Shown piece by piece: positions 9,461 through 29,804 of a stretch of DNA of 32,000 bases. Both the position numbers and the translations under genes were made by a program. The notes under the pieces were generated by a model. That model made no database searches, had not been told where the DNA came from, and was given only the letters and a program-made list of their open reading frames with translations. Numbering within the stretch: the stretch's first letter is position 1; each line of letters begins with the position of its first letter. Location: contig NC_017448.1 in NCBI RefSeq assembly GCF_000146505.1, positions 2,520,001 to 2,552,000 of the forward strand. The letters run 5' to 3'. The stretch comes from Fibrobacter succinogenes subsp. succinogenes S85. GTDB lineage: Bacteria > Fibrobacterota > Fibrobacteria > Fibrobacterales > Fibrobacteraceae.

Positions 9461-9483
9461 CAGTATGCACGAAACGCATAGTG
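9461..9483 (-). promoter_or_regulatory. LysR-type box 1 (ATGC-N7-GCAT) upstream of the 9385 operon
   Basis: The plus strand reads CAGTATGCACGAAACGCATAGTG. In gene orientation it lies 41 nt (hand count) upstream of TATATTA. Confidence 0.7.
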
Positions 9484-9511
9484 AAGCCTGCCAAGGGGAT
9501 TGATTCCCCTA

Positions 9512-9612
9512 GAAGATGTTATACATGACTGTTTAGGCAATCAAGCACCGCATTTTTGTAAACAATTTTGCCTATGAAACTGCGGAAATAAACATTGAAG
9601 TAAAACATCTTC
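9512..9612. repeat. Repeat copy R1, a 101-bp MITE-like unit with imperfect terminal inverted repeats
   Basis: Left end GAAGATGTTATAC versus the reverse complement of the right end GAAGATGTTTTAC (12/13). Positions 9520..9612 match 10611..10703 at 91/93. There is an internal inverted repeat TAGGCAA...TTGCCTA. Confidence 0.7.
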
Positions 9613-9980
9613 AACCTTTAAAATTCTATCAAAATGATGAAGTTGTCGTTGATTTGGAGTAAAATATGAAAAGATGGATTCAAAAGGGAACATCTTTTTC
9701 TGTAAAAAGTATTTGTCAGATGAATGCTTCTATAGCCTTCTTTTGGACTTTGCCTTTGAGTTCGGCGACTTGCCTTTTATCGCCAATTAGTATTAGTATA
9801 TATTTGTTATTGGAGGTCTATTATGCGAGTGATTTCACAAGAATTCAAGCAGATGCTGAAAGATAGTGATGTGTTGTATTTGCAGACGGCGGGTATCACA
9901 TACAAAAGTAACTAAAATTACAAAATCTTGAATATAATCGACTAGTAATAGACTAAGACAAATCGGAATTTGTGGAGGGA

Positions 9981-10553
9981 ATGATGGAAAATTGCAGGAA
10001 AACTGAACGAGAAAGAATGACAAATGGAGAATCTTTTTTTACAAATGACCCGCAGCTCATGGAGGATAAGAAAAACGCTCGTATCCTCTGTTCTCGTTTT
10101 AATAGTTCTCCGGAAGATGAGTCCTTAAGAAAAGCATTGTTAAAACAACTATTCGGGCACTGCGGGGAGAGGATAGCCATCAAGCCCCCGTTCCATTGTG
10201 ATTACGGATATAACATCTTTGCGGGCGATGACTTGTTCATAAACTTTGACTGCGTGTTCCTGGATGCAGCTCCGATTCGGATTGGAGAACATTGTATGAT
10301 CGGACCTAAAACCTGTATATATGCAATCGGTCATCCGTTGGACGCAGAATCAAGAAGAGAAAAGATTGGTATCCCTAAGCCGGTCACCATTGGCGATAAT
10401 GTCTGGATCGGCGGTGGAGTCACGATTCTTCCGGGTGTATCCATAGGAGATGGCACGGTAATCGCTGCTGCTTCTGTAGTAACTAAATCTTTTCCTGATC
10501 ATGTGGTGATTGCAGGAAACCCAGCAAAAATCATAAAGAATATTGAAGAATAA
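9981..10553 (+). CDS. maa: Maltose/galactoside O-acetyltransferase family (Mac N-terminal domain + hexapeptide repeats)
   Basis: TERERMTNGESFFTNDPQLMEDKKNARILCSRFN is Mac-like. Left-handed beta-helix repeats follow: IGEHCMIGPK, IGDNVWIGGGVTILPGVSIGDGTVIAAASVV. SD GGAGGG is at 9974-9979. The start could be ATG 9981 or 9984; the track's 9972 is a GTG. Confidence 0.85.
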   Translation: MMENCRKTERERMTNGESFFTNDPQLMEDKKNARILCSRFNSSPEDESLRKALLKQLFGHCGERIAIKPPFHCDYGYNIFAGDDLFINFDCVFLDAAPIRIGEHCMIGPKTCIYAIGHPLDAESRREKIGIPKPVTIGDNVWIGGGVTILPGVSIGDGTVIAAASVVTKSFPDHVVIAGNPAKIIKNIEE

Positions 10554-10610
10554 CTTCCAGTTTTTGGAGGAGAACATGCGCATAGATTTCAATGAGATTG
10601 CATCCATGAC

Positions 10611-10703
10611 TATACATGACTGTTTGGGCAATCAAGCACCGCACTTTTGTAAACAATTTTGCCTATGAAACTGCGGAAATAAACATTGAAGTAAAACATC
10701 TTC
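10611..10703. repeat. Repeat copy R2 (93 bp), which lacks the left terminal repeat of R1
   Basis: 91/93 identity to 9520..9612 in direct orientation, immediately downstream of the acetyltransferase gene. Confidence 0.75.
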
Positions 10704-10778
10704 TTTCCCCTAAAAAGAAAAGACTGCCAAGAGTTTCCTGGCAATCTTTCTAAAACATTCCGCCCATAAGGCGCAAGC

Positions 10779-10811
10779 CTACTTCACCCACTTATCGACT
10801 TCTTTCTGGGC
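10779..10811 (-). pseudogene. Relic of a flavodoxin gene 3' end (encodes AQKEVDKWVK-stop)
   Basis: 10771..10813 is near-identical to 21080..21122, the 3' end of the intact flavodoxin at 21088..21648 (same C-terminal peptide AQKEVDKWVK). Homology stops abruptly at about 10813. Confidence 0.65.
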
Positions 10812-10837
10812 CTTTATAACTTACTACACCGCAAAAA

Positions 10838-10875
10838 GTAAAATCTGTGTAAAGCGGCGTAAAGCCTTTGTAAAG
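10838..10875 (-). promoter_or_regulatory. Four direct GTAAA(A/G) (= TTTAC on the minus strand) repeats at 11/10/11-bp spacing; Pho-box-like array
   Basis: Hexamers start at 10838, 10849, 10859 and 10870, about 70-100 nt upstream of the PiT start. The periodicity is typical of OmpR/PhoB-family binding. Confidence 0.45.
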
Positions 10876-10909
10876 TCCTAATAAAACCTTTGGAAAACTT
10901 CATTCCATC

Positions 10910-10936
10910 GCCTTGCGTATTGTCGCAAGGCTTTTT
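10910..10936 (+). terminator. Terminator-like hairpin immediately upstream of the PiT start codon
   Basis: GCCTTGCG-tattgt-CGCAAGGC followed by TTTTT. ATG candidates lie at 10942 and 10960. Confidence 0.5.
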
Positions 10937-10941
10937 AGTTT

Positions 10942-13194
10942 ATGGCCCGAGAGGTTTTTATGACGACTTTTTATGTGATTCTTGTGGCCATGCTCCTAAT
11001 CCTTGCCCTGTTCGACCTGTTCGTAGGGGTCAGTAACGATGCCGTGAATTTTCTCAGTTCCGCTGTCGGGAGCAAGGCTTTCAAGTACAAAACCCTGATG
11101 GTCTTTGCTGCAGTGGGCGTGTTCTGTGGCGCTACGTTCAGCAGCGGCATGATGGATATTGCCCGCCATGGCATTTACATGCCCCAGTATTATACCTTTG
11201 CAGAACTTATGTGCGTATATGCGGCGGTGATGTTTACTGACGTAATCCTTCTAGATATTTTCAATTTTTACGGTATGCCCACTTCCACCACAGTTTCCAT
11301 GGTCTTTGAACTTTTGGGCGCCTCTGTGGCTATCGCCAGTATCAAGATTCTTTCTGACGATACCCTGGAACTGGGAAACCTCATCAACACCTCTAAGGCT
11401 CTGACGGTGATTTTGGGCATCTTCCTTTCGGTGGCCATCGCTTTTGTAGTTGGCCTTGCAGTGCAGTATGTGACGCGCCTGGTTTTCTCCTTTGGCTACA
11501 AGAAAAATATTCGATACTTTATTGGTGTTTTTGGAAGCGTTTCCCTGACGTCCATATTTTATTTTATCCTCATCAAGGGCCTCAAAAACATGAGTTTTGT
11601 GGGAGCAGGCTACAAGACTTTTCTCGCGGAAAATGAGACCGTTCTTGTGGCTGGCATGTTCGTCGGATTTTTCGTCCTTTGTCACTTGCTCCATGCGGTA
11701 AAAGTAAACGTGCTCAAGGTAATCATTGCTTTTGGGACTTTTTCTCTGGCTCTTGCCTTTGCCGGAAACGACCTTGTGAATTTTGTGGGGGTACCCCTCA
11801 CCAGCCTTTCTTCGGTGCAGCATTTGATGGCTGCTGGGGGCAATCCTCAGGATTTCAACATGTCCTTCTTGTTGGAGTCGGAACCAGGACAGTGGTACTT
11901 GCTGATGGTTGCTGGGCTTACCATGGTATTCTCCCTTGTGTTTTCCAAGAAGGCTCGGAATGTGGTGAAGACTTCCGTATCCCTAGCGGCCCAAAATTCT
12001 TCTGAAGAAATCTTTGGTACAAATCCGGTCGCTCGCGCCTTAGTTCGCAGTTCTAATGGTGTCGTAAAATTTGTAACAGAATTTATTCCAAGGAAAATTT
12101 CGGATAAAATTAACACCCGCTTTAATACCAAGGAAATGATTCTGGAAGAGGATGGGGCAGCCTTTGATTTGTTGCGGGCCTGCGTGAACCTGATGCTTGC
12201 CAGTTCTCTCATAGCCCTCGGAACTTCACTGAAACTTCCCCTTTCTACCACCTACGTGACCTTCATGGTGGCCATGGGTACAAGCCTTGCCGACAGGGCG
12301 TGGAACCGTGAAACTGCGGTGTACCGCATCACAGGGGTTCTTTCGGTTATTGGAGGCTGGTTCCTGACAGCTTTTGCGGCTTTTGCCAGTGCCTCGGTGG
12401 TGGCTATGGTGCTTCACTTTGGCGGGCTCCCGGTGATATTTGCCCTGTTTGCCGTGGTTATTTTCGTGCTGGTCCGTTCCAACCTGAAGTATCGTGGAAA
12501 CAAGAAGGACAAAACTGAAGAGCGTTTTGAGAAAATTCTTTCTGCAAGCCCCGAAACCAAGGTGTACCCTCTTATTCAGGAATACAGTCGGGGTGAATGG
12601 AGCGAAATTCTCCGCTGGTGTGCCGATTGCTATGAAAAACTGCTGATAGGCCTGTTGCGGGAAGATTTAGGAAGGCTCCGCTCGGTGAACAAACAAATTA
12701 AAATTCTAAAGAAACATGTGCAGCGGAATCGTCGCCACGGAACCCTGTGTACAGAAAGGCTCGCCCAAGAAGATTTGGTGGTCAAAAACTTTTTCCTGTA
12801 TCAGGCCAATGACTTTATGGGGGACGCCCTGTTTAGCCTAGAGCAGATTTCTTCGCCCTGCAAAAATCACGTGGACAACGGCTTTAACCCGATGGACAAC
12901 GAGAAGCGGAAGATGCTCCTGCGAACAGCGGCCCACGTGAAGGAGCGTATCGAGAGTGTCGCCGAGATGGTGGAAATCATGGACTTTGACCGTTATGATC
13001 AAGTCCGGGGCCAGCTGCGGGAAGAAGGTTCCAGGATATTTGCCGAACGAAAGGCCGAGATGATGAAGGCCGGTTCCGAAAACATCCGCGCAGAAATCCT
13101 TTATTTAACTATTCTTTATGAGTCCTGGGCGTTGCTGGATTCGGTCAGTTCCGTGGCCAAAGCCAGTAGAAAATTCCTAACTGTAAAACAATAA
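10942..13194 (+). CDS. Inorganic phosphate transporter, PiT family, with a long cytoplasmic C-terminal helical (PhoU-like?) extension
   Basis: Duplicated PiT signature GVSNDAVNFLSSAVGS and AGNDLVNFVGVPL, with many TM segments. The C-terminal ~240 aa are hydrophilic and helical. An alternative start at 10960 (MTTFYV) has the better SD, GAGAGG. Confidence 0.85.
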   Translation: MAREVFMTTFYVILVAMLLILALFDLFVGVSNDAVNFLSSAVGSKAFKYKTLMVFAAVGVFCGATFSSGMMDIARHGIYMPQYYTFAELMCVYAAVMFTDVILLDIFNFYGMPTSTTVSMVFELLGASVAIASIKILSDDTLELGNLINTSKALTVILGIFLSVAIAFVVGLAVQYVTRLVFSFGYKKNIRYFIGVFGSVSLTSIFYFILIKGLKNMSFVGAGYKTFLAENETVLVAGMFVGFFVLCHLLHAVKVNVLKVIIAFGTFSLALAFAGNDLVNFVGVPLTSLSSVQHLMAAGGNPQDFNMSFLLESEPGQWYLLMVAGLTMVFSLVFSKKARNVVKTSVSLAAQNSSEEIFGTNPVARALVRSSNGVVKFVTEFIPRKISDKINTRFNTKEMILEEDGAAFDLLRACVNLMLASSLIALGTSLKLPLSTTYVTFMVAMGTSLADRAWNRETAVYRITGVLSVIGGWFLTAFAAFASASVVAMVLHFGGLPVIFALFAVVIFVLVRSNLKYRGNKKDKTEERFEKILSASPETKVYPLIQEYSRGEWSEILRWCADCYEKLLIGLLREDLGRLRSVNKQIKILKKHVQRNRRHGTLCTERLAQEDLVVKNFFLYQANDFMGDALFSLEQISSPCKNHVDNGFNPMDNEKRKMLLRTAAHVKERIESVAEMVEIMDFDRYDQVRGQLREEGSRIFAERKAEMMKAGSENIRAEILYLTILYESWALLDSVSSVAKASRKFLTVKQ

Positions 13195-13209
13195 TTTGTG
13201 TGTAATCCT

Positions 13210-13887
13210 ATGATTTATATTGTGGAAGATGATGCTGAAGTTCGGGAAATGGAAACTTATGCTTTAAAGAGCGGCAGTTTTGACGTGATGGCTTTCGAAT
13301 GCGGTAAAGTTATGGACGAACAAGTTAAGGTTAAAGTGCCGGACTTGTTTATTTTGGACATTATGCTCCCCGGTGAAGACGGCTTAAGTATTCTCAAGCG
13401 TTTGCGAGGACAGGAAAACACAAAGAATATCCCTGTCATCATGCTTACGGCGAAAGGAACTGAACTTGACAAAGTGAAGGGACTTGACTTGGGAGCGGAC
13501 GACTATATCGCAAAGCCGTTTGGCATTCTAGAACTCATCTCTAGAGTACGGGCTGTACTTCGCCGTTCTGGACGAGGCTCATCCGAAAGTACGGAGTCAC
13601 TGAGCTTGGCTTTAGGAGGAGTGATTCTTGATGACCAGCGTCGTTCGGTAACTGTTGACGGGGTTGCTGTAGAACTCACTTTTAAGGAATACGAGCTTTT
13701 GAAACTCCTGATGTCCCGACCGGGAACTGTTTTCTCTAGGCAACAGATTCTAGAAAAGATTTGGGGTGTGGATTTCGATATGGATACCCGCACCGTAGAC
13801 ATGCATGTAAAAACCCTTCGTCAAAAGTTGGGGGCGCATGGTTCTATAGTACAAACTGTGCGAAACGTGGGATACAAGGCTCTATGA
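13210..13887 (+). CDS. OmpR/PhoB-family response regulator
   Basis: Receiver domain: IYIVEDD, LFILDIMLPGEDG, IMLTAKG. Winged-helix output domain: LTFKEYELLKLLM...VDMHVKTLRQKL...VRNVGYK. It begins 16 nt after the PiT stop. The track's 13198 start is a GTG. Confidence 0.9.
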   Translation: MIYIVEDDAEVREMETYALKSGSFDVMAFECGKVMDEQVKVKVPDLFILDIMLPGEDGLSILKRLRGQENTKNIPVIMLTAKGTELDKVKGLDLGADDYIAKPFGILELISRVRAVLRRSGRGSSESTESLSLALGGVILDDQRRSVTVDGVAVELTFKEYELLKLLMSRPGTVFSRQQILEKIWGVDFDMDTRTVDMHVKTLRQKLGAHGSIVQTVRNVGYKAL

Positions 13888-15248
13888 AAAACAGCATTCG
13901 TTTCAGCTTGATTTACGTAGGTGTGCTGGCCGCTCTTTTTGCGGTGTATTTTACGGCACGCGTCTTCGAAAACGAAATGTCAGAACAGCTGAAGCGAGAT
14001 TTGAGGGAAACAGCCTTTCTCGTCAAAAATTTCTATGGGCAGATTCCTTCAGAAGACTTTCGGAAAAACCTGGATTCCATTGCCAACAAACGTTTGCGCG
14101 TAACTCTGGTGGATCGGGATGGAAAGGTCCTCTACGAAAGCGACGCAAAAGCAGGCCAAATGGAAAATCATAGGAATCGTCCCGAAATTATGGAAGCGAA
14201 TTCCAAGGGTGTAGGTGAAAACCTCCGTTATTCAGTGACCCTGAATGCCAAGGTATTCTATTTTGCAGAACGACTCCCAGATGGCAAAATTCTTCGTTTG
14301 AGCCGCCGTCAGGCGAGCCTCCACGAATCAGTATCCAAGACCATGCCTTACTTGATAGCGCTGTTGACAGGTATTGTTGTTTTGGCCATTCTGATTGCTT
14401 TAGGCTTGAGCCGCGCTTTTGTACGACCCGTGCAAAAATTGGCGGAAAACTTGGGTCAGCCAGAACTTATTGATGACGAAGATATCTACAAGGAAATCGC
14501 TCCGCTGGTCAAAACCATCCGTAAGCAGCATCGTGAACTGCAACTCACCATTGAACAACTTTCTGAAGAAAAAAAGAAAACGGCCAAGATGCGAGATGAG
14601 TTTACGGCTAACGCCTCCCATGAACTCAAAACGCCATTGACATCCATTTCTGGATATGCGGAACTTATCGAAAATGGCATGGCGAAACCCGAAGATGTAA
14701 AGCGCTTTGCTGGAAAAATTCACAAAGAAGCTGGCCGTCTCCTTTCTATCGCCAACGATATCATGACCCTTTCAAAGCTGGATGCTCCGGGAGAATCTGC
14801 GATTGGACTGGACGAATCCGTGAATTTGTGGACACTGGCTTCAAACTGTATTGACGAACTCTCCTTTAACGCCGAAAAGAAGGGTGTTCGTGTGGCGCTG
14901 GAAGGTTGTAAAACCGCAGAGGTTTACGGCAATCGTCGGCTCCTATTCGAGATGCTTTACAACTTGGTCGACAATTCCATTCGCTATACAGAAACGGGCG
15001 GTTCCGTGAGTATTCTAGTGCAACAAAAATCTATTGCTGTGAAGGATACAGGGATTGGCATTCCCGAAGAAAACCAGCCACGCATTTTTGAACGGTTTTA
15101 CCGTGTGGACAAGAGTCGCTCCAAGGCTACAGGCGGCACGGGATTGGGCCTTGCCATTGTTAAGCATATCGCCGAAGTGCACCATGCAGAGATTTCGTTA
15201 CAATCCGCCATAGGCGTAGGTACAGAAATAACAGTGGCTTTCTGCTAG
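13884..15248 (+). CDS. Sensor histidine kinase, PhoR-like
   Basis: ATGA overlap with the RR stop (13884-13887). Two TM segments flank a sensor domain with ENHRNRPEI. H-box SHELKTPLTSISGYAELI, N-box LVDNSIRYT, G-boxes VKDTGIGIP and GGTGLGLAIVKHI. Confidence 0.9.
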   Translation: MKNSIRFSLIYVGVLAALFAVYFTARVFENEMSEQLKRDLRETAFLVKNFYGQIPSEDFRKNLDSIANKRLRVTLVDRDGKVLYESDAKAGQMENHRNRPEIMEANSKGVGENLRYSVTLNAKVFYFAERLPDGKILRLSRRQASLHESVSKTMPYLIALLTGIVVLAILIALGLSRAFVRPVQKLAENLGQPELIDDEDIYKEIAPLVKTIRKQHRELQLTIEQLSEEKKKTAKMRDEFTANASHELKTPLTSISGYAELIENGMAKPEDVKRFAGKIHKEAGRLLSIANDIMTLSKLDAPGESAIGLDESVNLWTLASNCIDELSFNAEKKGVRVALEGCKTAEVYGNRRLLFEMLYNLVDNSIRYTETGGSVSILVQQKSIAVKDTGIGIPEENQPRIFERFYRVDKSRSKATGGTGLGLAIVKHIAEVHHAEISLQSAIGVGTEITVAFC

Positions 15249-15250
15249 AA

Positions 15251-15275
15251 GCAAGCCTATTTCTCCCACTTATGG
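15251..15275 (-). repeat. Second copy of the flavodoxin-3'-end-like sequence (direct repeat of 10773..10797)
   Basis: GCAAGCCTATTTCTCCCACTTATGG versus GCAAGCCTACTTCACCCACTTATCG. The first 23 nt differ at 2 positions. It reads HKWEK-stop on the minus strand. Confidence 0.55.
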
Positions 15276-15287
15276 CTCTGTCGGGTC

Positions 15288-15360
15288 AAAGGCGGTCCTA
15301 TCGAAAACGCGGGTGGCCTGTTGCATATTATGGGTCACCATGACGACGGTATAGTCCTTC
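15288..15360 (-). pseudogene. pstB gene fragment (about 73 bp)
   Basis: Roughly 90% identical by eye to 16430..16502 inside the intact pstB. It encodes ...[23 protein letters not shown], with no start and no continuation. Confidence 0.8.
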
Positions 15361-15377
15361 GGGTAATTTATATTTTC

Positions 15378-15602
15378 TTAAAGCCGTTCCAGCTGGACCA
15401 GGGAAAGGCGATTGTCCAGCCACACCTTCTTGGGCACCAGCCGGTAAAGCTTGTTGATGTATCCACCAGAACCGATAATAGAAACGGGCCCCCAGTTCAC
15501 CATCATCATGCGGATTTCGTCGCACATGTCATCTACGGAATCCATGTCCACCAGGCCGCAGAGCAGCCGCAGGGTTCCGATATTGAAACTACGGCTACCC
15601 AT
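15378..15602 (-). pseudogene. Possible Ppx/GppA-type (ASKHA) fragment, 74 codons
   Basis: SFNIGTLRL and IIGSGGYINKLYRL loosely resemble the SxxxGxVRL and GxGGTxxxL segments of exopolyphosphatases. It is far too short for a full domain. Tentative. Confidence 0.3.
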
Positions 15603-15641
15603 AAACAGGCCCTAGTAAAGTCAGTTTTATAATATTTCTAG

Positions 15642-16328
15642 TTACTTTTCATCGAAATCGTCGGCCCCGTTCAAGAGATTGGCTCCATGATGAGTACCGG
15701 TTTCTGCAAAGATGGCCCACTGGGCCACGTTCATGGCGTGGTCGCCGATGCGTTCCAGGTATTTAGCGATCATGATGGAATGGATAATGCTCTCGGCATC
15801 GCTTTCCGTCTTCCTGATAGTTTCCACCAGTTCACGCTTGGCAGAGCGGAAAAGGAAATCCACGTCATCGTCACTTTCAATTACAATCTTGGCCAGCTTC
15901 AAGTCCTTACGGACAAAGGCATCGATACTTTGCGCCAGCATCTTAAGCACGTCAATGCCCATGGGCGGAATAGCGGCCAGTTTCAGGGGAGTCCCGTCCT
16001 GGTCTGTACACCCCGCCACAATTTCAGCAATATCTGCAGCCTGGTCGCCGATGCGTTCCAGGTCCCCCACCATTTTCAGGGAGGCCGAAATCAGGCGCAA
16101 GTCCCGGGCTACAGGCTGCTGGCTCAGCAAAAGCCGCAGGCAAAGAGTCTCAATTTCCTTCATCTTCTGGTCGATTTCCTTGTCGCCCACCACAATCTTC
16201 TTGGCGGTTTCACGGTCAAAGGCCAGCAAGGCGTCTATGGAGGCCTTCAGGGAATCTTCCACCAGGGCGCCCATTTCTATAATACCCCTGTTCAGGGCTT
16301 CCAGTTGCGAATCAAAACGGTTTCTCAT
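15642..16328 (-). CDS. phoU: Phosphate signalling complex protein PhoU
   Basis: Two PhoU repeats (DKEIDQKMKEIETLCLRLLLSQQPVARDLR, ERIGDQAADIAE / ERIGDHAMNVAQ). One-nt overlap with the pstB stop. Confidence 0.9.
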   Translation of the reverse strand: MRNRFDSQLEALNRGIIEMGALVEDSLKASIDALLAFDRETAKKIVVGDKEIDQKMKEIETLCLRLLLSQQPVARDLRLISASLKMVGDLERIGDQAADIAEIVAGCTDQDGTPLKLAAIPPMGIDVLKMLAQSIDAFVRKDLKLAKIVIESDDDVDFLFRSAKRELVETIRKTESDAESIIHSIMIAKYLERIGDHAMNVAQWAIFAETGTHHGANLLNGADDFDEK

Positions 16329-17086
16329 TATCCAAATCTCCCGGTAATGTAGTCCTCGGTGCGCTTGTCCTTGGGCAGCGAGAACAGGGTTTCAGTCTTG
16401 TTGACTTCGATGACTTCCCCTAAGAGGAAAAAGGCGGTCCTGTCGGAAACGCGGGTGGCCTGCTGCATGTTATGGGTCACCATGACGATGGTATAGTTCT
16501 TCTTGAGTTCCAAAACTAGGTCCTCGATAATGGAGGTGGAAATGGGGTCCAGGGCGCTGGTAGGTTCGTCCATCAGGAGCACTTCCGGCGAAACTGCCAG
16601 GGCACGGGCAATGCAGAGCCTCTGCTGTTGACCGCCGGAAAGGCCGAGAGCATTCTTTTTCAAGCGGTCCTTCAGTTCTTCCCACACGCCGGATTTCTGC
16701 AGGGACGTTTCCACGATTTCATCCAGCTCCGCCTTGTTACGGATACCGTGGGTCCTAGGACCGTAGGCGATGTTGTCGTAGATGCTCATGGGAAAGGGAT
16801 TGGGTTTCTGGAACACCATGCCCACCCTCTTGCGGAGAATATTGGGATTCATTTCCCCGTATACATCCTGGCCATCCAAGAGGATGTGGCCCGTAATCTT
16901 GCAGCCTTCCACCAGGTCGTTCATGCGGTTCAAGGACTTGAGTAAGGTGCTTTTACCGCAGCCGGAAGGCCCAATAAAGGCCAAGATTTCGTTGGGCATA
17001 ATGTTAAGGTTCACGTTTTTCAACGCATGGAAACTGCCGTAATACAGATCCATTCCTTGAATAGAAATTTTTTCGTTAGGTGTCAT
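16328..17086 (-). CDS. pstB: Phosphate ABC transporter ATP-binding protein PstB
   Basis: Walker [10 protein letters not shown], signature LSGGQQQR, Walker [12 protein letters not shown], and the PstB-typical ending YITGRFG. Confidence 0.95.
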
Positions 17087-17919
17087 TAGGTTTTTCCGAT
17101 TTTCTTTGCAAATTTGTTAGAAATCCAGTTGATAAGAAGGATTACCAGAATGAGGATAACCGAAGTGGCGTAGGCCTCGCCGGTATGGAAACCTTCTCGA
17201 GAAAGTTCGTACATGTGAACAGACAGAGTCCTGCCCGAAGAGAATATTCCCTTGGGAAAATCCGCCACCGTACCTGCCGTATAGACAAGGGCGGCAGTCT
17301 CTCCCACCACACGGCCCACCGCTAGGATTACACCTGCAAGGATTCCCGGAACGGCTGACGGTAATATTACCGACAAAACCGTACGGAGCTTACCTGCCCC
17401 GAGGCCGTAGGAACCTTCGCGATAACTATCTGGAACAGAACGCAGGGCCTCTTCAGTGGTGCGCATGACCAGGGGCAAAATCATGATGGAAATGGTCAAG
17501 ATACCGGAAACCAGGGAATATCCCAGGTGCAGGAAGGTCACGAAGAACAGCATTCCGAAAAGACCGTAGATAATGGAGGGAATTCCGGAAAGGGTTTCGG
17601 TAGTGATCCGCACCAGTCCCACGATCTTGTTTCCGCGGCGGGCGTATTCCACCGTATAGATGGCAGCACAGATTCCTAAAGGGCCTGCCACCAGGAGAGA
17701 ACCAAACACGATGATAACCGTATTCAGGATGGAGGGCAGGAAAGAGACATTCTCCGAGGTGTAAGTGAGAGAAAACAGGGAGGGTTTCAGGAATGGGATA
17801 CCCTTCACCAATATATAGAGGATCAGGAACCCCAGGGTGCATACCGTAATGGCGATGGCCAAGGACACGAGGATTCTCAGAAACAGCGAAAAGGGCGCAT
17901 GCTTATAGTATCCGATCAT
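17086..17919 (-). CDS. pstA: Phosphate ABC transporter permease PstA
   Basis: Starts [13 protein letters not shown] at an ATGA overlap with the pstC stop. Multi-TM with the EAA-type loop [19 protein letters not shown]. The upstream 230 codons of the 510-aa track ORF are an out-of-frame overlap with pstC. Confidence 0.9.
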
Positions 17920-18788: not shown

Positions 18789-18792
18789 GGTA

Positions 18793-19809: not shown

Positions 19810-19938
19810 TTTGAACTCCTTTGGGCCAAGCCCTGTTTGAATGACGGCATCAACTTAGATTGTCATTGTAAAAACTGAAGAGGGGTCGAAGTAAAATATT
19901 TGAGAAGTTCTTGTAACGAATAAAAGAGGAGTAAAGGC

Positions 19939-19978
19939 TTTACAAAGATTTTACCCTACATGCTATTGGGTCTTTACA
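19939..19978 (+). promoter_or_regulatory. TTTAC(A/C) direct repeats upstream of pstS (Pho-box-like)
   Basis: TTTACA at 19939, TTTACC at 19950 (11 bp later) and TTTACA at 19973 (23 bp later). All lie 50-90 nt upstream of the ATG at 20031. Confidence 0.45.
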
Positions 19979-20030
19979 TAGCTTGTCTAACTTGTGGTCA
20001 TCATTCAAAACCAACCAAGGAGTATCAAGA

Positions 20031-21648: not shown

Positions 21649-21741
21649 GGGATCCGCCTTTTTCGTAAAAAATTCCTTTGAACCGGTTGAGTATAATATA
21701 AATAAATCCAGAACGGCCGCGTAATGCGTAATTTTTATGCC

Positions 21742-21764
21742 CAGTATGCGTGTGGCGCATAGCG
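21742..21764 (-). promoter_or_regulatory. LysR-type box 2, upstream of the flavodoxin gene
   Basis: The plus strand reads CAGTATGCGTGTGGCGCATAGCG, 41 nt from TATATTA in gene orientation. Confidence 0.7.
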
Positions 21765-21854: not shown

Positions 21855-21877
21855 GCCTATGCCTTCAAAGCATATCT
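21855..21877 (+). promoter_or_regulatory. LysR-type box 3, upstream of the aldo-keto reductase gene
   Basis: GCCTATGCCTTCAAAGCATATCT, 41 nt upstream of TATTTTT. That heptamer ends only about 5 nt before the ATG at 21931. Confidence 0.65.
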
Positions 21878-21930
21878 TTTATGCGGAATAAGTATTTGGG
21901 TTTGTTGCGGGATTTGTTTATTTTTAGGGC

Positions 21931-22869
21931 ATGAGGTGGTTCAGTTTCTTGTTCGTTTTCCTGTTCATGGCGTGTTCGAGCGATGCTGCGTCGCAGGCTA
22001 TGCCGAAAGTTTCGAACAAAGGAGATTCGATCGTGCAGAATAGCAAAGGGGCGGCCCCAACGGTCAAGTTGAATTCGGGTTTCGATATGCCGGTTCTCGG
22101 GCTTGGCACTTGGACTTTGCGCGGCAAGGTGGCTGAAGACGCGGTCTATGTCGCCATCAAGAACGGGTATCGACTGATTGATACAGCAAAATATTACGAC
22201 AACGAAGAAGCCGTGGGTAGGGGTATTCGTCGGGCGATTGACGATGGGCTTGTGAAGCGCGAAGATTTGTTCGTGACATCGAAATTGGTGCCGTGGAGCA
22301 GTTCCCTGGACGAAGACATCGACGACTCGCTCGAAAAGCTGGGGCTCGAATATATTGATTTGATGCTGTTGCACCAGCACGGGCGCGACGCCGAAGACAA
22401 GGCGGTTTACAAGGCTATGGAACGTGCTGTGAAGGCGAAGAAGATCCGTTCCATCGGTATTTCGAATTACTACACCGAAAAGACGGCGAAGCGCTTTTTT
22501 GCCGATTTCGAAATCAAGCCTGCCGTGGTGCAAAACGAGAACCATGTGTTTTACCAGAACACGGAATTCAAGGAATACGCAAAACGATACGGCGCTGTGG
22601 TGGAATCTTATTACCCGCTGGGCGGGCGCGGCCACACCGAAGACGTCTTGGGGAACAAGGTTGTCACAAAGATAGCGAAGGCTCACGGGAAATCGGCTGC
22701 ACAGGTGGTGTTGCGCTGGCATGTGCAATCGGGCTACATTGCCATTCCGGGCTCCAAGAACCCTGACCACATCGCAGAAAACATATCGATTTTCGATTTC
22801 GAGTTGACAGACGACGAAATGAAGCAAATCGCCGCCCTTGATACGGGACACCGCTACGAAAACTGGTGA
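21931..22869 (+). CDS. Aldo/keto reductase with lipoprotein-type signal peptide
   Basis: MRWFSFLFVFLFMAC plus an S/A/K-rich linker, then the AKR core: VKLNSGFDMPVLGLGTW, IDTAKYYDNEEAVG, LHQHG, IAIPGSKNPDHIAENI. Confidence 0.9.
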   Translation: MRWFSFLFVFLFMACSSDAASQAMPKVSNKGDSIVQNSKGAAPTVKLNSGFDMPVLGLGTWTLRGKVAEDAVYVAIKNGYRLIDTAKYYDNEEAVGRGIRRAIDDGLVKREDLFVTSKLVPWSSSLDEDIDDSLEKLGLEYIDLMLLHQHGRDAEDKAVYKAMERAVKAKKIRSIGISNYYTEKTAKRFFADFEIKPAVVQNENHVFYQNTEFKEYAKRYGAVVESYYPLGGRGHTEDVLGNKVVTKIAKAHGKSAAQVVLRWHVQSGYIAIPGSKNPDHIAENISIFDFELTDDEMKQIAALDTGHRYENW

Positions 22870-22978: not shown

Positions 22979-24196
22979 ATGAAGATTGCCATACAAAACC
23001 AGCGCAAGGAGCGGGACAGACTTCTCAGTCTGCCGTATATCCCCCGTCAAACCATATACGACTTTGACGAATTGCTGAAAAGTCCGAACATCAAGCTTTT
23101 GACGGGGCCGAGGCGTGTCGGAAAATCTACCCAGGCCCTTTTGATGTTGCGGGGCAAGAACTTCGCCTACCTGAATTTTGACGATAACGAACTATTGAAC
23201 AAGTGGGACGAACAGCAAGCGGAGATGTTGCTTGGGGAAATTTACCCGAATTACGAGTACTTGCTGCTGGACGAAGTACAGAACGTTGACGGTTGGGACG
23301 TCTGGGTTAATAAACTTTATCGACGTGGTGTAAATTTGGTCATAACCGGCAGTAACGCAAAAATGCTTTCTGGCGAAATGGCAACCGTACTAACAGGTCG
23401 CTACCTTGAAATCAACATGCTGCCATTTAGCCTTGCCGAGGCATCGCAGTTTGCTAGCCGCTTGGGTAATGCAGAAAAAATCCAGGACGACTTCTTGAAA
23501 AACGGCGGTTACCCGGAGACTTTTACTCAAAGGTCTATTACCCAAAGTTATTTACAGACCCTTTTCGACTCCATTCTGTACAAGGACATTGTCAGAAGAC
23601 ATAAGATCAGAAACGCAACTGACTTGAACAATGTAGCCATGTTTCTTTTGTCCAATTTCACGGGAACATTTAGCTACAATGACGTAGCAGATGACCTAGG
23701 GCTCTCTAGCGTCAGCACAACAAAAAAGTTCATGGATTACTTGCATGAACCGTTTCTGTTTTATTATCTGGACAGATATAACAACAAACTAAAGTTGATG
23801 AAAAAAGCGCCTCGCAAGGTGTATGTGGTTGACAACGGTTTTGTTGCATCGAAGGCTTTTAATTTGAGCGATAATCTCGGAAAACTGCTGGAAAACCAGG
23901 TCTTTGTGGAGTTGCTTCATCGCGGGTACGACACCGAAAAGTCCTTGTTCTACTATCATTCCCGAAACGACAAGGAAACCGACTTTGTACTTCGTGAAGG
24001 CAACAAGGTCAAGGAACTTATCCAGGTTTGCTACGACATGTCCAAAGAAAAGACTATAAAGCGGGAAGTGGACAGCATCGTTGAATGTGCAGGAGAACTA
24101 GGCTGTGACAACCTGACTATTGTGACATGGAACGAGGAAAGGACTATCGAAAAAAAAGGCTACACAATCAAGGTTGTGCCTGTGGGTAAGTTTTAA
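22979..24196 (+). CDS. AAA-superfamily ATPase with DUF4143-type C-terminal domain (AAA_14/DUF4143 family)
   Basis: Walker A LTGPRRVGKST, Walker B YLLLDEVQ. The length and the C-terminal ETDFVL...VKELIQVCY pattern are typical of this family. Confidence 0.8.
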   Translation: MKIAIQNQRKERDRLLSLPYIPRQTIYDFDELLKSPNIKLLTGPRRVGKSTQALLMLRGKNFAYLNFDDNELLNKWDEQQAEMLLGEIYPNYEYLLLDEVQNVDGWDVWVNKLYRRGVNLVITGSNAKMLSGEMATVLTGRYLEINMLPFSLAEASQFASRLGNAEKIQDDFLKNGGYPETFTQRSITQSYLQTLFDSILYKDIVRRHKIRNATDLNNVAMFLLSNFTGTFSYNDVADDLGLSSVSTTKKFMDYLHEPFLFYYLDRYNNKLKLMKKAPRKVYVVDNGFVASKAFNLSDNLGKLLENQVFVELLHRGYDTEKSLFYYHSRNDKETDFVLREGNKVKELIQVCYDMSKEKTIKREVDSIVECAGELGCDNLTIVTWNEERTIEKKGYTIKVVPVGKF

Positions 24197-24201: not shown

Positions 24202-24224
24202 CACTATTCACTTGACGCATAGCA
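24202..24224 (+). promoter_or_regulatory. LysR-type box 4 (one half degenerate), overlapping the LysR gene's own promoter
   Basis: CACTATTCACTTGACGCATAGCA, only 7 nt upstream of TATATTC and 34 nt before the ATG at 24258. Confidence 0.6.
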
Positions 24225-24257
24225 GAATTATTATATTCCCCCCAAAAGGGGCTTTTT

Positions 24258-25084: not shown

Positions 25085-25486
25085 TTATTTCCTGATGAAC
25101 TTTTCGTCGGTCTTGGGCATGGTGTTGTCGGGCGTGAAGCGTTCGGCAGTCATTTTCAAGTCGTACTTGTCGCGGAGTTTCGCAATCGTCTTCATCATGG
25201 GCGAAGCGTGGTGCACGTCGATGGCAGCCTGGCTTTCCCACGCGTCAATCAGCAAGATGGTCTCGGGATCGTCAAGCGACTGGAAATATTCGTAGCGGAT
25301 GTTGCCCTTCTCGGCACGGATTTTCGCCACCGTTCCGCTAGAAACCATCTCTTCGGCGAACTTCTTTGCCGCCCCGTTCTTACCCGTATAGCGCAGGTTT
25401 ACCGTAATGTTGCTCATGACACTCTCCGCAAACACGCTCGCCGCGAGCGCAAGGATTGAAAACAGTGTTAAAAACTTGAGTTTCAT
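25085..25486 (-). CDS. ABM (antibiotic-biosynthesis/quinol monooxygenase-like) domain protein with signal peptide
   Basis: MKLKFLTLFSILALAASVFA|ES, then the ferredoxin-like ABM pattern ...IRYEYFQSLDDPETILLIDAWESQAAIDVHHASP. Confidence 0.7.
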   Translation of the reverse strand: MKLKFLTLFSILALAASVFAESVMSNITVNLRYTGKNGAAKKFAEEMVSSGTVAKIRAEKGNIRYEYFQSLDDPETILLIDAWESQAAIDVHHASPMMKTIAKLRDKYDLKMTAERFTPDNTMPKTDEKFIRK

Positions 25487-25560
25487 TTTGCCACTCCGAA
25501 ATGTTTCGGATATAATATAAATTTTTTCGGAGTATGCGCAAAATGCTTAATTTTCATGCC

Positions 25561-25583
25561 CAGTATGCGCATGACGCATAGTG
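25561..25583 (-). promoter_or_regulatory. LysR-type box 5, upstream of the ABM gene
   Basis: The plus strand reads CAGTATGCGCATGACGCATAGTG (near-perfect palindrome), 41 nt from TATATTA in gene orientation. It abuts the stop of the upstream gene (25589). Confidence 0.7.
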
Positions 25584-25588: not shown

Positions 25589-26104
25589 CTATTCCACCGA
25601 AAATGTCGCCTTCACGTTCCCTTTGCCGAGAATCTGCTGGAGGCGTTTCTTATTTACGTTGTCGATACGGGCGAGGCGCGTGAAATTCCAGGAATTCTTG
25701 TCGTAGTAAATGGTGATGGAGTTGCCCTGGTAAAGGATGATGTCGCCTGCGTCGGTGTCGATTTGCTTGTCATTACGCGGAAAACTGCGCGGCAGGTCAG
25801 CCACCTTCTCGAAGCTGCCGTAGTCGTGCATGTCGAGCGTCATGTCGCCCTGCATAAGGAATTCGGCGAAGGCCTTGGCCGAGGAATTTTCTTCGAGCGT
25901 CGCTGTGAAGGTGGTATCGTTCACATGGATTTTTAGTTTCACGGGAGCCTCCGTTTGGGCAGATGAACTTGCTGGCACTGCGCCGGGCGTTTTACTGGCG
26001 GACGATTTCGGCGTCTGAGCTTCGGGTTGCGTCGAATGACTCGCCGCATCGCTGCAGGCCACGAGAAAGAACAACGCTATAAGTACAATGTTTCGCATAC
26101 ACAC
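25589..26104 (-). CDS. Cyclophilin-like-fold lipoprotein
   Basis: Lipobox ALFFLVAC plus an S/T/P/A-rich linker. This is followed by IHVNDTTFTATLEENSSAKAFAEFL...DAGDIILYQGNSITIYYDKN...ARID, typical of the cyclophilin-like family often found next to flavodoxins. Confidence 0.65.
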   Translation of the reverse strand: MCMRNIVLIALFFLVACSDAASHSTQPEAQTPKSSASKTPGAVPASSSAQTEAPVKLKIHVNDTTFTATLEENSSAKAFAEFLMQGDMTLDMHDYGSFEKVADLPRSFPRNDKQIDTDAGDIILYQGNSITIYYDKNSWNFTRLARIDNVNKKRLQQILGKGNVKATFSVE

Positions 26105-26152
26105 AATATAAATAATTGTGCGAGCGATTCAAAATACTTATTTGCTATGACT

Positions 26153-26175
26153 CACTATGCCTTTTGCGCATGAAT
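26153..26175 (-). promoter_or_regulatory. LysR-type box 6, upstream of the cyclophilin-like gene
   Basis: The plus strand reads CACTATGCCTTTTGCGCATGAAT, 42 nt from TATATTG in gene orientation. That -10 lies within about 5 nt of the ATG. Confidence 0.65.
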
Positions 26176-26818: not shown

Positions 26819-26820
26819 GT

Positions 26821-27149: not shown

Positions 27150-28355
27150 TTACTTCAAGTTCGTCTTGAAGAATTCGTTCAGCTTTTCGAAGGGAATTTT
27201 TTCCAGGTTGTCGTAGAGGTCAACATGGGAGGCTCCAGGGATAACGAGGAGTTCCTTGTTGCCGACGGTCTTGCTCCAGTTCTTGGTGGCGTCGAGTTTT
27301 GCGGGGACGTTTGCCTTCTTGCCGGTCATCTTTTCGAATGCGCCTTCGCCGAAGTAGCGGCTATGGGCCTTTTCGCCGTGGATGATGAGCACCGGGTTAC
27401 GGATTTCGTCGGCGTATGCGAGGAGCTTGGTGTTCATGAGCGAGGTGCCTGCGGAGGCGGCCCAGCCCTTGTTGCTGTTGAGGGAACGCTTGTGATAGCC
27501 GCGCGGGGTCTTGTAGTAAGCGTAGTAATCCTTGACAAAGTAAGGAGCGTCGTCCGGGAGCGGGTCAATAACACCGCCGGCCAGGTCGTACGAGCCGTTC
27601 TTGAAATCCTTGGTGCGCTGGGCCATCAGAGCCTTGCGGGCCTCGTTACGGGCGTCAGCGTTGTTTGCGGAATCGAAGTAGCCGTTCGCGGTTACGCGGC
27701 TCATGTCGTACATGGTCGAGGCGACCGTCGCCTTTACGCGGGTATCGATGCCGGCAGCGTTAATCGCCATGCCGCCCCAGCCGCAAATGCCGATGATGCC
27801 GATGCGTTCCGGGTCAACGTTGTCGCGGTTCGAGAGAAAGTCCACGGACGCCATGAAGTCTTCGGTGTTGATGTCCGGGCTGTTCATGTAGCGCGGCTCG
27901 CCACCCGATTCGCCGGTGAAGCTCGGGTCGAAAGCGATGGTCAGGAATCCGCGTTCCGCCATCTGTTGGGCGTAAAGGCCGCTGGACTGTTCCTTGACGG
28001 CACCGAACGGGCCAGAGACCGCGATCGCGGGAAACTTGCCGTTCACCTTAAGGCTCGTGTCCTTGGGCACGAACATATCGGCGGCGAGTTCAATGCCAAA
28101 GTGGTTCTTGAAAGTGACCTTGGAATGTTCGACCTTGTCGCTCTTGGGGAAAACCTTATCCCATTCGGCGGTGAGCGTGAGCTTGTTCATATTTTCGTCC
28201 TTTGTCTGTTGTGCTGCGGAGGCTGTTTCTGTTGCGGACTGCGCGGCCGGCGTGGCGGCACCTTGCGCAGCATTGTTTTCTTTTTCGGGGCAGCATGCCA
28301 TCAGGGTGCATGCGGAAACCACGGCGAGCGCCGCTTTTAAGAATCTGGATTTCAT
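27150..28355 (-). CDS. Alpha/beta hydrolase lipoprotein, dienelactone-hydrolase-like with a Cys in the nucleophile elbow
   Basis: Lipobox AVVSAC/TLMAC plus an A/Q/T-rich linker. Nucleophile elbow GIIGICGWGG (G-x-C-x-G). HG oxyanion-type IHGEKA and a late GASHVDLYD. Confidence 0.85.
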   Translation of the reverse strand: MKSRFLKAALAVVSACTLMACCPEKENNAAQGAATPAAQSATETASAAQQTKDENMNKLTLTAEWDKVFPKSDKVEHSKVTFKNHFGIELAADMFVPKDTSLKVNGKFPAIAVSGPFGAVKEQSSGLYAQQMAERGFLTIAFDPSFTGESGGEPRYMNSPDINTEDFMASVDFLSNRDNVDPERIGIIGICGWGGMAINAAGIDTRVKATVASTMYDMSRVTANGYFDSANNADARNEARKALMAQRTKDFKNGSYDLAGGVIDPLPDDAPYFVKDYYAYYKTPRGYHKRSLNSNKGWAASAGTSLMNTKLLAYADEIRNPVLIIHGEKAHSRYFGEGAFEKMTGKKANVPAKLDATKNWSKTVGNKELLVIPGASHVDLYDNLEKIPFEKLNEFFKTNLK

Positions 28356-28392
28356 GATTTATCTCCTATTTAAAAATTCAACTCTTCTTGTC

Positions 28393-28412
28393 ATGTCCGC
28401 GCAGGCGGACAT
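28393..28412 (-). promoter_or_regulatory. 8-bp/4-nt-loop hairpin in the hydrolase 5' leader
   Basis: ATGTCCGC-gcag-GCGGACAT lies between the -10-like element (about 28426-28441) and the ATG at 28355. Confidence 0.3.
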
Positions 28413-28476
28413 CTCCCTTTACATTTTTAATATTATTTATTCCCTGTACAATAGCAATTGCTTATTTACTATGGTT

Positions 28477-28499
28477 TGTTATGCTTTTTAGGCATGGAT
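28477..28499 (-). promoter_or_regulatory. LysR-type box 7, upstream of the hydrolase gene
   Basis: The plus strand reads TGTTATGCTTTTTAGGCATGGAT, 41 nt from TAATATT in gene orientation. Confidence 0.6.
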
Positions 28500-28514
28500 A
28501 TTTAATAAACGAAT

Positions 28515-29125
28515 TCAATCAGGTTGCTGGCCGTCGTGAGCTTTCCACAGGCATTCCGTCAATGCAAAGTCTGAAAATTTTGCCAAGAACGAGGAATCTT
28601 CAGGGCTACAAGCGTAAATACCAAAGCGGATTTTACCAGCACCTTCCCACATATGGCAAATGCGCATTTGCGTGAAGTTTTTTCCATCTTGCGAACATTC
28701 TATGCAATAGTCACTTTCTCGACGGCTAAAGCGGAACCACATCGTTTTAATTTCGGCACTGATAGCAGTCGTAGCCCAGTCGGAATAACCGTGGTTGGTT
28801 ACAACCGAACCAAGATGCTGGAATTTTTCATTTTCGTATTCAACAGATGCTTTCAGCCAATTTTCAGAATCAAGATACATAGCGATTCCGCACTGATCGA
28901 AGCGATGATGGCTTCCAGAAAAATCTGTTTTCATGACAAACGAGAAAAATTTTTCCTCCGTTTCAATCGAAGAACCGGCGCATTGTCGTTGCGAAAACGG
29001 TAATAAGTTCTTTGCCAAAGATCCGTATGCGGATCGGTCACGATGCAAATTTCATCCTCGCCAACTTTGTAAGTTGCAGGTTCGCGAGTCCATTTCAGGT
29101 CGGCAGAGTCAAAAACTTGCTTCAT
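28515..29125 (-). pseudogene. DUF1349-family (concanavalin-like) gene interrupted by a 1-nt frameshift
   Basis: The N-terminal 50 aa (MKQVFDSADLKWTREP...TDLWQRTYYRFRNDNAPVL) are in one frame. The rest (IETEEKFFSFVMKTDF...FDQCGIAMYLDSENWLKASVEYE...) is in the -1 frame. The switch lies at about 28965-28972. Confidence 0.7.
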
Positions 29126-29160
29126 GAGGAATACCTTTTTTCATAGTTGATCACCCTTTA

Positions 29161-29700
29161 TTAAGCTTTCTTTCCCATGGCGAACGCTTTTTTCAGGAGC
29201 GCGGAATTCTTCTTGACATCGCCTGCGCTTTCGGCACCTGTGGCGCAGAGAGCGCCCTTGAGCTTCACGCCGTCAAAGCAGGCAATCCACCCGCCAATGC
29301 CGCGCTTTGCGATGTTCATGGCCTTCGCATCGGTGTCGGCGGCAGAAGTGAGCAGGTAAATTTCGCGGAACTTGTAATCGCTGGAATAGAGGGAATTCGC
29401 GCGGTCGAGCATCGTCTTGAGCTGGCCGCTCATCTCGTAATAGTAAATCGGCGTTGCAAACACGATGACATCGGCCGATTCCATCTTCTTGGTGATGGCG
29501 GGAGCGTCGTCCTTGATGACGCATTTGCCCTTCTTCTGGCAAGCAAGGCAGCCCATGCAAAAACCGATCTTCTTGCCGCGCAGCGACTCGAATTCCACCT
29601 TGTTGCCCGCCTCGGCGGCACCCTTCGCGAACTCCTGCGCCAGGGTTTCGGAGTTGCTACCCTTACGCAAGCTGCTGGACAAGACCAATACTTTTTTCAT
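29161..29700 (-). CDS. Iron-sulfur flavoprotein-like NAD(P)H-dependent FMN reductase (flavodoxin fold), cytoplasmic
   Basis: MKKVLVLSSSLRKGSNSE (FMN_red type). The compact Cys motif CMGCLACQKKGKC (CX2CX2CX5C) matches Isf-type 4Fe-4S flavoproteins. There is no signal peptide. Confidence 0.8.
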   Translation of the reverse strand: MKKVLVLSSSLRKGSNSETLAQEFAKGAAEAGNKVEFESLRGKKIGFCMGCLACQKKGKCVIKDDAPAITKKMESADVIVFATPIYYYEMSGQLKTMLDRANSLYSSDYKFREIYLLTSAADTDAKAMNIAKRGIGGWIACFDGVKLKGALCATGAESAGDVKKNSALLKKAFAMGKKA

Positions 29701-29781
29701 AGGTTCCTCTCGGTTGAAGTCTTTACATGTTCAAATATACCTTCATTTTTCAGATATTGCAAATACTTTGTTTTCATAACT

Positions 29782-29804
29782 AGATATGCTTATAAGGCAT
29801 AGAT
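29782..29804 (-). promoter_or_regulatory. LysR-type box 8, upstream of the Isf-like gene
   Basis: The plus strand reads AGATATGCTTATAAGGCATAGAT, 42 nt from TATATTT in gene orientation. Confidence 0.65.

Follow-up and report, generated by a model that had tools for sequence, protein, structure and literature searches.

Two subtypes of a LysR-type operator in a shared promoter module of Fibrobacter succinogenes S85 and their candidate assignment to two regulators

Promoters of the BenM/CatM/CbnR type, which are controlled by LysR-type transcriptional regulators (LTTRs), combine an ATAC-N7-GTAT recognition site, located near -65, with an activation site located near -35. The operator of OxyR reportedly consists of four half-sites (ATAG-N7-CTAT-N7-ATAG-N7-CTAT). 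The NtcB box, ATGC-N7-GCAT-N7-ATGC-N7-GCAT, accommodates two DNA-binding-domain dimers of one tetramer, as revealed by cryo-electron microscopy (bioRxiv 10.1101/2022.10.10.511513). Here, we examined a 32-kb stretch of the Fibrobacter succinogenes S85 genome (hereafter, the window), in which boxes with an ATGC-N7-GCAT core precede seven structural transcription units and the gene of an LTTR, designated here as T1. These boxes very probably serve as LTTR-type operators, in which the recognition site would be centered near -65 and the activation site near -43. They occur in two subtypes, and we consider it rather likely, from the genes found next to them, that one subtype is read by T1 and the other by a second LTTR, T2, encoded outside the window, with possible cross-talk between the two.

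The analysis of enrichment covered the window and ~46 kb around it. In the window, the core ATGCNNNNNNNGCAT (ATGC-N7-GCAT) had seven exact matches against 0.60 expected, and the highest number obtained in 100 shuffles was 4. An eighth site upstream of the T1 gene, ATTCACTTGACGCAT, contains a single core mismatch (ATTC in one half). The eight sites are those of an initial annotation of this DNA, in which they were described as 23-nt boxes that start 4 nt before the core starts given in Table 1. Six of the modules are on the minus strand and one (21859) is on the plus strand. A composite pattern (box 1, N7-8, AT-N9-GYAWT, N22, WATWTT) matched all seven structural promoters, with 0 matches expected in the window. 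When the window and the 10 kb surrounding the T2 gene were scanned with a position-weight matrix, no additional composite site was detected.

The seven structural promoters have in common a module of 66–67 nt. When read toward the downstream gene, the seven sites aligned without gaps except at one position. Box 1 is a perfect dyad of 15 nt followed by an invariant A, and TGC-N7-GCA, a T-N11-A motif, is embedded in its ATGC-N7-GCAT core. The degenerate second site mentioned in the initial annotation proved to be a weakened copy of ATGC-N7-GCAT (box 2) located 7 or 8 bp 3' of box 1; the linker is 7 nt at 9465, 21746, 21859, and 25565, and 8 nt at 26157, 28481, and 29786. Box 2 has the form YATR-N8-GYAWT (ATRN-N7-GYAW followed by T), lies directly 5' of a TTGnnn -35-like element, and is separated by an invariant 22 nt from the -10 element, WATWTT (five of the seven promoters have TATATT). 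The previous hand count of 41–42 nt between the 23-nt box and TATATT was accurate: four promoters have 41 nt and three have 42 nt, and the additional base is situated between box 1 and box 2. The center of box 1 is 53–54 nt 5' of the first TATATT base in all seven promoters; the centers of -65 (box 1) and -43 (box 2) assume a start ~7 nt after the predicted -10 element.

The dyads and spacing support the reading of the boxes as LTTR-type operators with recognition and activation sites. The second, weaker site abuts the -35 element, as an activation site would, and is retained in orthologs. At the flavin mononucleotide (FMN) reductase promoter, a scan with the sigma-70 consensus identified TTGCAA-17-TATATT, and the cyclophilin-like promoter contained TTGAAT-16-TATATT. 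The remaining promoters have weak -35 elements, as is usual for activator-dependent promoters. In the manner of classical LTTR regulation, a tetramer would sit on both dyads and, once its effector is bound, would activate RNA polymerase.

The module resembles BenM/CatM/CbnR-type promoters in the layout of the recognition and activation sites, the T-N11-A dyad, and, in loci other than that of S85, the overlap of a divergent regulator promoter with the recognition site (the T1 promoter in loci L036, L090, L141, and L146, and the T2 promoter in many loci). However, regulators of this type usually control one divergent target operon, whereas seven promoters and two regulators need to be considered here, and BenM is a distant sequence match only (E = 1e-10). 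The likeness to OxyR consists of four half-sites in an N7/N7/N7 register and of one LTTR that would serve several dispersed stress promoters and repress its own gene; in contrast, the letters of the half-sites differ. T1 and T2 scored 60.1 and 77 bits, respectively, against a cut-off of 329 for the OxyR equivalog model NF008361. Since T1 does not contain any cysteine, it would be unable to use the thiol switch of OxyR; an OxyR-like redox switch for T1 was rejected for this reason and because its score was far below the model cut-off. The operator form of NtcB, the LTTR of nitrite-responsive genes in cyanobacteria, recurs in the four N7 promoters of the window with a degenerate second dyad. However, the NtcB box is located at -100 to -64 and functions together with NtcA via DNA looping, whereas the second dyad abuts the -35 element here, and the target genes are unrelated. 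T1 (74.7 bits) and T2 (69.5 bits) were also far below the cut-off of 450 for the CbbR model and, thus, are not orthologs of NtcB, CmpR, or CbbR. Neither of them attained any curated NCBIfam equivalog cut-off.

The conservation of the module was assessed in two ways. A scan of species-representative genomes with the composite pattern, which demanded the core letters, yielded at least 120 stretches. A motif-independent set comprised 30 metagenome loci retrieved with the T1 protein and a cultured F. succinogenes strain (L131) retrieved with T2. Among the matches listed in the pattern scan, approximately half were from Fibrobacter metagenome-assembled genomes, in which the first genes behind the module are orthologs of those in S85. 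In the protein-anchored loci, the exact core was present before the aldo/keto reductase (AKR) gene in 12 of 12 cases, the ABM gene in 14 of 14, the flavodoxin gene in 8 of 8, the cyclophilin-like gene in 4 of 4, and the CMD-cupin operon in 3 of 4, the remaining one having ATAC. Homology between orthologous promoters begins ~6 nt 5' of box 1 although the upstream neighbors differ. Both approaches showed that related Fibrobacter genomes retain the boxes as well as their target genes.

Outside Fibrobacter, many modules among the matches listed precede homologs of the hydrolase, cyclophilin-like, FMN reductase, flavodoxin, AKR, and ABM genes, and share letters that the pattern did not demand (ATGCYTnTCAAGCAT ... 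ATAAGTATTTGCTAT). Their sources, again among these matches, were Treponema and other spirochaetes, gut Alphaproteobacteria, Lentisphaerae, Oscillospiraceae, Lachnospiraceae, Desulfovibrio, an isolate of Bilophila wadsworthia (ATCC 49260), Oxalobacter, and Metabacillus. A divergent LTTR of the T2 family was encoded within 200 nt of box 1 at 28 of the promoters listed, which belong to Alphaproteobacteria, Lentisphaerae, Spirochaetes, Firmicutes, Desulfovibrionaceae, Oxalobacter, and Fibrobacter (two loci). Another conserved element, CTTGACTTAGAGT..., which is similar to MerR promoters, was noted before a second AKR paralog (L030, L120, and L130) and before Flavodoxin_4 (L041); it hints at a further regulator acting on the same gene families.

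Two box subtypes are set apart by a symmetric difference that affects both half-sites, at positions 5 and 11. The T1 subtype is ATGCR-N5-YGCAT with an N7 linker, and its extended dyad, CACTATGCG-N5-CGCATAGTG, is the 23-nt box of the initial annotation. The T2 subtype is ATGCY-N5-RGCAT (ATGCYT-N3-ARGCAT), mostly with N8, and box 2 with the -35 element reads AAGTATTTGCTAT. R5/Y11 with N7 tracks the ABM, CMD-cupin, and flavodoxin genes, while Y5/R11 tracks the hydrolase, FMN reductase, and AKR genes. The sites at 28481 and 29786 matched the T2 subtype in full, the site at 21859 matched it in box 1 only (N7), and the site at 26157 was a hybrid. Among the matches listed, the 28 T2-divergent promoters had a pyrimidine at position 5 without exception, a purine at position 11 in all but two (one T and one unassigned in the tabulation), and N8 spacing in 26. 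Boxes of the R/Y type were found in Fibrobacter sequences only among these matches. Spacing (N7 versus N8) was rejected as the sole class marker because N7 occurs in the T2-type AKR box and in two T2-associated promoters of Firmicutes.

The two subtypes also differ in the conservation of the spacer. The central pentamer of T1-type boxes is hypervariable, with 11 pentamers in 14 ABM promoters (25571–25575 in the window; L137–L158), which outside the pentamer are nearly invariant (~87–95% identity to S85); the strains compared are otherwise 87–97% identical. In contrast, the T2-type AKR box has a nearly invariant spacer, and the T2 consensus reaches into the spacer (TCAA). Spacers are at times identical between paralogous promoters within one strain. 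These patterns may stem from gene conversion or from palindrome-linked mutation.

T1 had been annotated as an LTTR, and this was confirmed by matches above the cut-offs to both Pfam domains: HTH_1 (PF00126; 54.6 bits against 26.6, residues 8–64) and the LysR substrate-binding domain (PF03466; 63.8 bits against 28, residues 95–256). The protein is short (267 amino acids), and all of its orthologs have 267–270 amino acids. Close homologs (at least 88% identity) are F. succinogenes-like sequences only; the next homolog is 51% identical, and identities are 37% or less thereafter. The best solved relative is 5y2v (E = 9e-14). At the T1 gene, TATATT is 7 nt from the 23-nt box, as previously counted (11 nt from the 15-nt core), and the sigma-70 consensus scan predicted TTCACT-16-TATTAT with the -35 TTCACT inside the box. 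Since the -35 element sits within the box, the promoter of T1 fits autorepression, the geometry of which had been recognized in the initial annotation. Most of the 24 protein-anchored regions upstream of T1 retain CACTATTCACTTGACGCATAG (the ATTC box) or a one-base variant, while two have a full dyad; boxes of the CACTATTCACTTGACGCATAG type are kept regardless of the upstream gene. The initial annotation also stated that the regulator is not divergently paired with a target. This applies to S85, in which the one-mismatch box overlaps the predicted -35 element of T1, but not to four related loci (L036, L090, L141, and L146), in which T1 and the flavodoxin promoter lie divergently around a common box, and the full dyad is 11 nt from the -10 element of T1.

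More distant metagenomic LTTRs with 34–37% identity to T1 (L133 ~5870–5900 and L135 ~4280–4305) are divergent from Flavodoxin_4-DUF362 or ADH-hydrolase-AKR/Fer4-FMN_red operons. The dyad in these intergenic regions, GTACAATAT-N7-GCATTGTGCTAT (ACAATAT-N7-GCATTGT), resembles ATGC-N7-GCAT only in part. We rejected these relatives as a guide to specificity; their dyad is related but different.

T2 is ~27% identical to T1. T2 proteins have ~293–300 amino acids, start with MELRVLRYFL, and contain ...TQPTLSRQL... in the helix-turn-helix. The family is very large (4067 matches at E < 1e-20), and Fibrobacter members are ~70–75% identical to those of Treponema. A look-up anchored on the DUF1016 gene of the window located the T2 gene of S85, which is intact (293 amino acids) and corresponds to window-equivalent positions ~36959–37840, ~7 kb past the box at 29786. 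The loss of T2 from S85 was considered and rejected; tblastn detected no remnant in the window, but the intact gene is present 7 kb away. Between the 29786 box and T2 are the DUF1016/YhcG gene and the HsdM, HsdS, and HsdR genes of a type I restriction-modification system (L167 4525–11005). Approximately 85 nt of the original upstream sequence is left at the T2 gene of S85, and no box is beside it. In this arrangement, S85 has no divergent T2 gene within ~100 nt of box 1, whereas T2 is adjacent to the box in L086 and L033.

In L131, T1 and T2 are encoded in one cluster, and T2 is divergent from the FMN reductase gene. A PhdYeFM/ParE toxin-antitoxin pair lies between the two at the spot of the S85 island, and identity to S85 stops ~6 nt beyond the 29786 box. 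Since two different insertions, in S85 and L131, end a few bases from this box, rearrangements have repeatedly spared it. The FMN reductase promoter may be regarded as the ancestral divergent partner of T2, which would have been cut off by the restriction-modification island in S85. The intergenic region between T2 and the FMN reductase gene resembles an insertion hotspot.

The initial annotation attributed all seven units to a single regulator. The sites are indeed of the LTTR type and T1 is an LTTR; however, two subtypes are present, and the second is divergent from T2 elsewhere. We propose that T1 would read the first subtype and repress its own gene through the box overlapping its -35 element, and that T2 would read the second subtype despite its displacement over 7 kb by the restriction-modification island. 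Cross-talk between T1 and T2 is possible because the ATGC/GCAT core is common to both subtypes. No terminator was predicted between the AKR and T1 genes in S85, and, thus, read-through from the T2-type AKR promoter into T1 is possible, which would link the two parts of the circuit. Several points weigh against this partition. T1 and T2 were assigned from the gene neighborhood, and this association and the symmetric difference at two positions form the entire basis of the proposal. The four T1-divergent loci are orthologous and, therefore, approximate one evolutionary observation. Due to the shared core, either protein might bind both subtypes. The classes are not clean since the AKR box is T2-type with a T1-like N7 and the cyclophilin-like box is a hybrid. 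The recognition helices (SQPAVSRA in T1 and TQPTVSRQ in T2) are both generic for LTTRs and, thus, uninformative on specificity. In addition, the pattern scan was biased toward the letters demanded, and the promoter scan assumed a sigma-70 consensus for Fibrobacter that may not be that of the host.

Control by T1 alone, with T1 bound to all eight boxes and T2 irrelevant or redundant in S85, would explain the common ATGC/GCAT core and similar module geometry, the position of the T1 gene in the middle of the cluster, and the location of T2 7 kb from its partner promoter without a box of its own. The T1-type modules (9414–9479, 21695–21760, and 25514–25579) are also mutually paralogous, with ~75–79% identity over ~77 nt. 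However, the symmetric difference at positions 5 and 11 and the conservation of the spacer track which LTTR is the divergent neighbor, the Y/R subtype occurs with the same targets in many phyla from which no close T1 homolog was obtained, and T2 is intact in S85. We regard control by T1 alone as unlikely, and the partition between two regulators fits the comparative data better. The opposite arrangement, in which T2 governs all ATGC-N7-GCAT promoters, with T1 restricted to its own promoter or serving as a modulator or anti-activator (e.g., by competing for boxes), appears very improbable. The T2 family is large, widespread, and tied to the core in many phyla, and one protein may in principle read both subtypes; nevertheless, R/Y boxes were confined to Fibrobacter among the matches listed, similar to close T1 homologs, and are divergent from T1 in four loci, while a purine at position 5 was found in 0 of the 28 T2-divergent promoters listed.

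The identity among T1-type modules exceeds what shared binding sites require, which suggests that these modules spread by the duplication of a promoter cassette. This identity, the sharp upstream edge of homology, and the spacers at times common to paralogous promoters of one strain may also be attributed to a dispersed promoter repeat, generated by duplication, gene conversion, or a mobile element, with a dyad that is unbound or bound by a protein other than an LTTR. However, the core of the dyad is retained across phyla along with its spacing and its placement with respect to the -35 and -10 elements while the remainder of the promoter diverges, a divergent LTTR gene adjoins the dyad in more than 30 loci, and the architecture equals that of a structurally characterized LTTR site. 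Therefore, we give hardly any credence to an unbound or non-LTTR repeat.

The coordinates of the modules and genes are summarized in Table 1; the gene calls of the initial annotation were all borne out by Pfam.

Table 1. Promoter modules and genes in the 32-kb window of F. succinogenes S85
Feature	Position	Strand	Description
Five-gene CMD-cupin operon	5118-9385	-	Same gene order in L029, L057, L063, L141, L147
Two 147-amino-acid open reading frames	5611-6054, 5118-5561	-	Without Pfam match
DUF4405 membrane cytochrome	6057-6722	-	Pfam
FGE-sulfatase + Flavodoxin_4	6738-8171	-	Pfam
CMD + cupin lipoprotein	8171-9385	-	Pfam
CMD-cupin operon promoter module	9414-9479	-	Box 1 ATGCGTTTCGTGCAT (9465-9479), T1-type (R5, Y11), N7; TATATT 9414-9419
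CMD-cupin promoter box 2	within 9414-9479	-	ATGAAAAAATGGTAT
Flavodoxin_4 gene	21088-21648	-	Pfam
Flavodoxin_4 promoter module	21695-21760	-	Box 1 ATGCGCCACACGCAT (core start 21746), T1-type, N7
AKR promoter module	21859-21924	+	Box 1 ATGCCTTCAAAGCAT (core start 21859), T2-type (Y5, R11) but N7
AKR gene	21931-22869	+	Pfam
AAA_14/DUF4143 ATPase gene	22979-24196	+	Between AKR and T1
T1 operator/promoter	box 24206-24220, TATATT 24232-24237	+	ATTCACTTGACGCAT, T1-type (one mismatch); flanks CACT and AGC kept
T1, LTTR of 267 amino acids	24258-25061	+	HTH_1 + LysR_substrate
ABM monooxygenase-like gene	25085-25486	-	Pfam
ABM promoter module	25514-25579	-	Box 1 ATGCGTCATGCGCAT (core start 25565), T1-type, N7
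Cyclophil_like2 lipoprotein gene	25589-26104	-	Pfam
Cyclophilin-like promoter module	26105-26171	-	Box 1 ATGCGCAAAAGGCAT (core start 26157), hybrid (ATGCG half + AGGCAT half), N8, T2-like box 2
Alpha/beta hydrolase lipoprotein gene	27150-28355	-	Pfam
Hydrolase promoter module	28429-28495	-	Box 1 ATGCCTAAAAAGCAT (core start 28481), T2-type, N8; box 2 + -35 = AAGCAATTGCTAT
FMN reductase gene	29161-29700	-	Pfam; followed by DUF1349 gene (28515-29126)
FMN reductase promoter module	29734-29800	-	Box 1 ATGCCTTATAAGCAT (core start 29786), T2-type, N8
DUF1016/YhcG + type I restriction-modification island, start	29841-32000	-	Continues past the window

The AAA_14 gene occupies its position in S85 and some relatives, but is missing from it in L083, L140, L144, L157, L158, and L160, in which AKR is directly followed by T1; its absence from several relatives suggests that it is probably an insertion outside the regulon. 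The best sigma-70 match of the region, TTGCCA-17-TATAAT (11/12) at 25488–25516 on the plus strand, is antisense to the ABM gene; its -35 element is within the 5' untranslated region of ABM, and its TATAAT abuts and partly overlaps the -10 element of ABM. A phosphate cluster unrelated to the boxes (10942–20912) separates the first box from the others and encodes a 750-amino-acid PHO4-family transporter, an OmpR-type response regulator, a histidine kinase, PhoU, PstB, two Pst permeases, and a phosphate-binding protein. The window was identical to CP001792 (~2.073–2.105 Mb) over the shared stretch except for one base. A T present in CP001792 is absent at ~28969 of the window and causes a frameshift in the DUF1349 gene. 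Variation between strains or assemblies could account for this difference, as could a sequencing error in either record.

By inspection, a signal peptide or lipobox is present in seven of the products (CMD-cupin, FGE-flavodoxin, flavodoxin, AKR, ABM, cyclophilin-like, and hydrolase), and neither was found in the FMN reductase. Flavodoxin_4 followed by DUF4405 recurs 3' of the box in several loci. DUF4405 is a heme-b membrane cytochrome associated with extracytosolic ApbE-flavinylated Flavodoxin_4 and FMN_red proteins (PMC11334425). The combination of exported redox enzymes with a DUF4405 cytochrome suggests an envelope-located reductive or detoxifying system. In the quinone/electrophile regulons of Bacillus subtilis (MhqR/YodB) and Escherichia coli (YgiN-MdaB), the regulators are of the MarR/DUF24 type and the enzymes are cytoplasmic. 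The gene set of the window resembles these regulons by functional analogy only, in its enzyme families: an FMN-dependent reductase, an ABM-type monooxygenase, a dienelactone hydrolase-like esterase, and an aldehyde/ketone reductase. In contrast, LTTRs are the candidate regulators here, and the products comprise seven with export signals or lipoboxes as well as a DUF4405 cytochrome. Our guess for the inducer is quinone-like or electrophilic plant compounds. Among the bacteria that degrade cellulose in the rumen, F. succinogenes is a major one. We found no published regulon for these genes, and the literature naming both F. succinogenes and LysR was unrelated; these genes are not mentioned in the accessible part of one transcriptome paper on S85.

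Taken further, and more tentatively than the partition itself, two unrelated LTTRs may read near-identical operators that are told apart by a symmetric R/Y swap at positions 5 and 11, as a cross-talking or hierarchical circuit controlling an exported flavodoxin/DUF4405 cytochrome/reductase system. The T2 half may represent a cassette, including its operator, that has spread horizontally across at least six phyla of gut and rumen anaerobes, and the system may serve a widespread envelope stress or detoxification response.

The present study provides a candidate operator code for two uncharacterized LTTR families and ties it to exported Flavodoxin_4 and a DUF4405 cytochrome, components that were recently linked to extracytosolic electron transfer. 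Although the mechanism is textbook LTTR biology, the locus shows a possible way for two LTTRs to partition near-identical sites. Since this combination of operator and genes is found again in Treponema, Bilophila/Desulfovibrio, Lentisphaerae, gut Alphaproteobacteria, and Firmicutes, its annotation could reach thousands of regulators.

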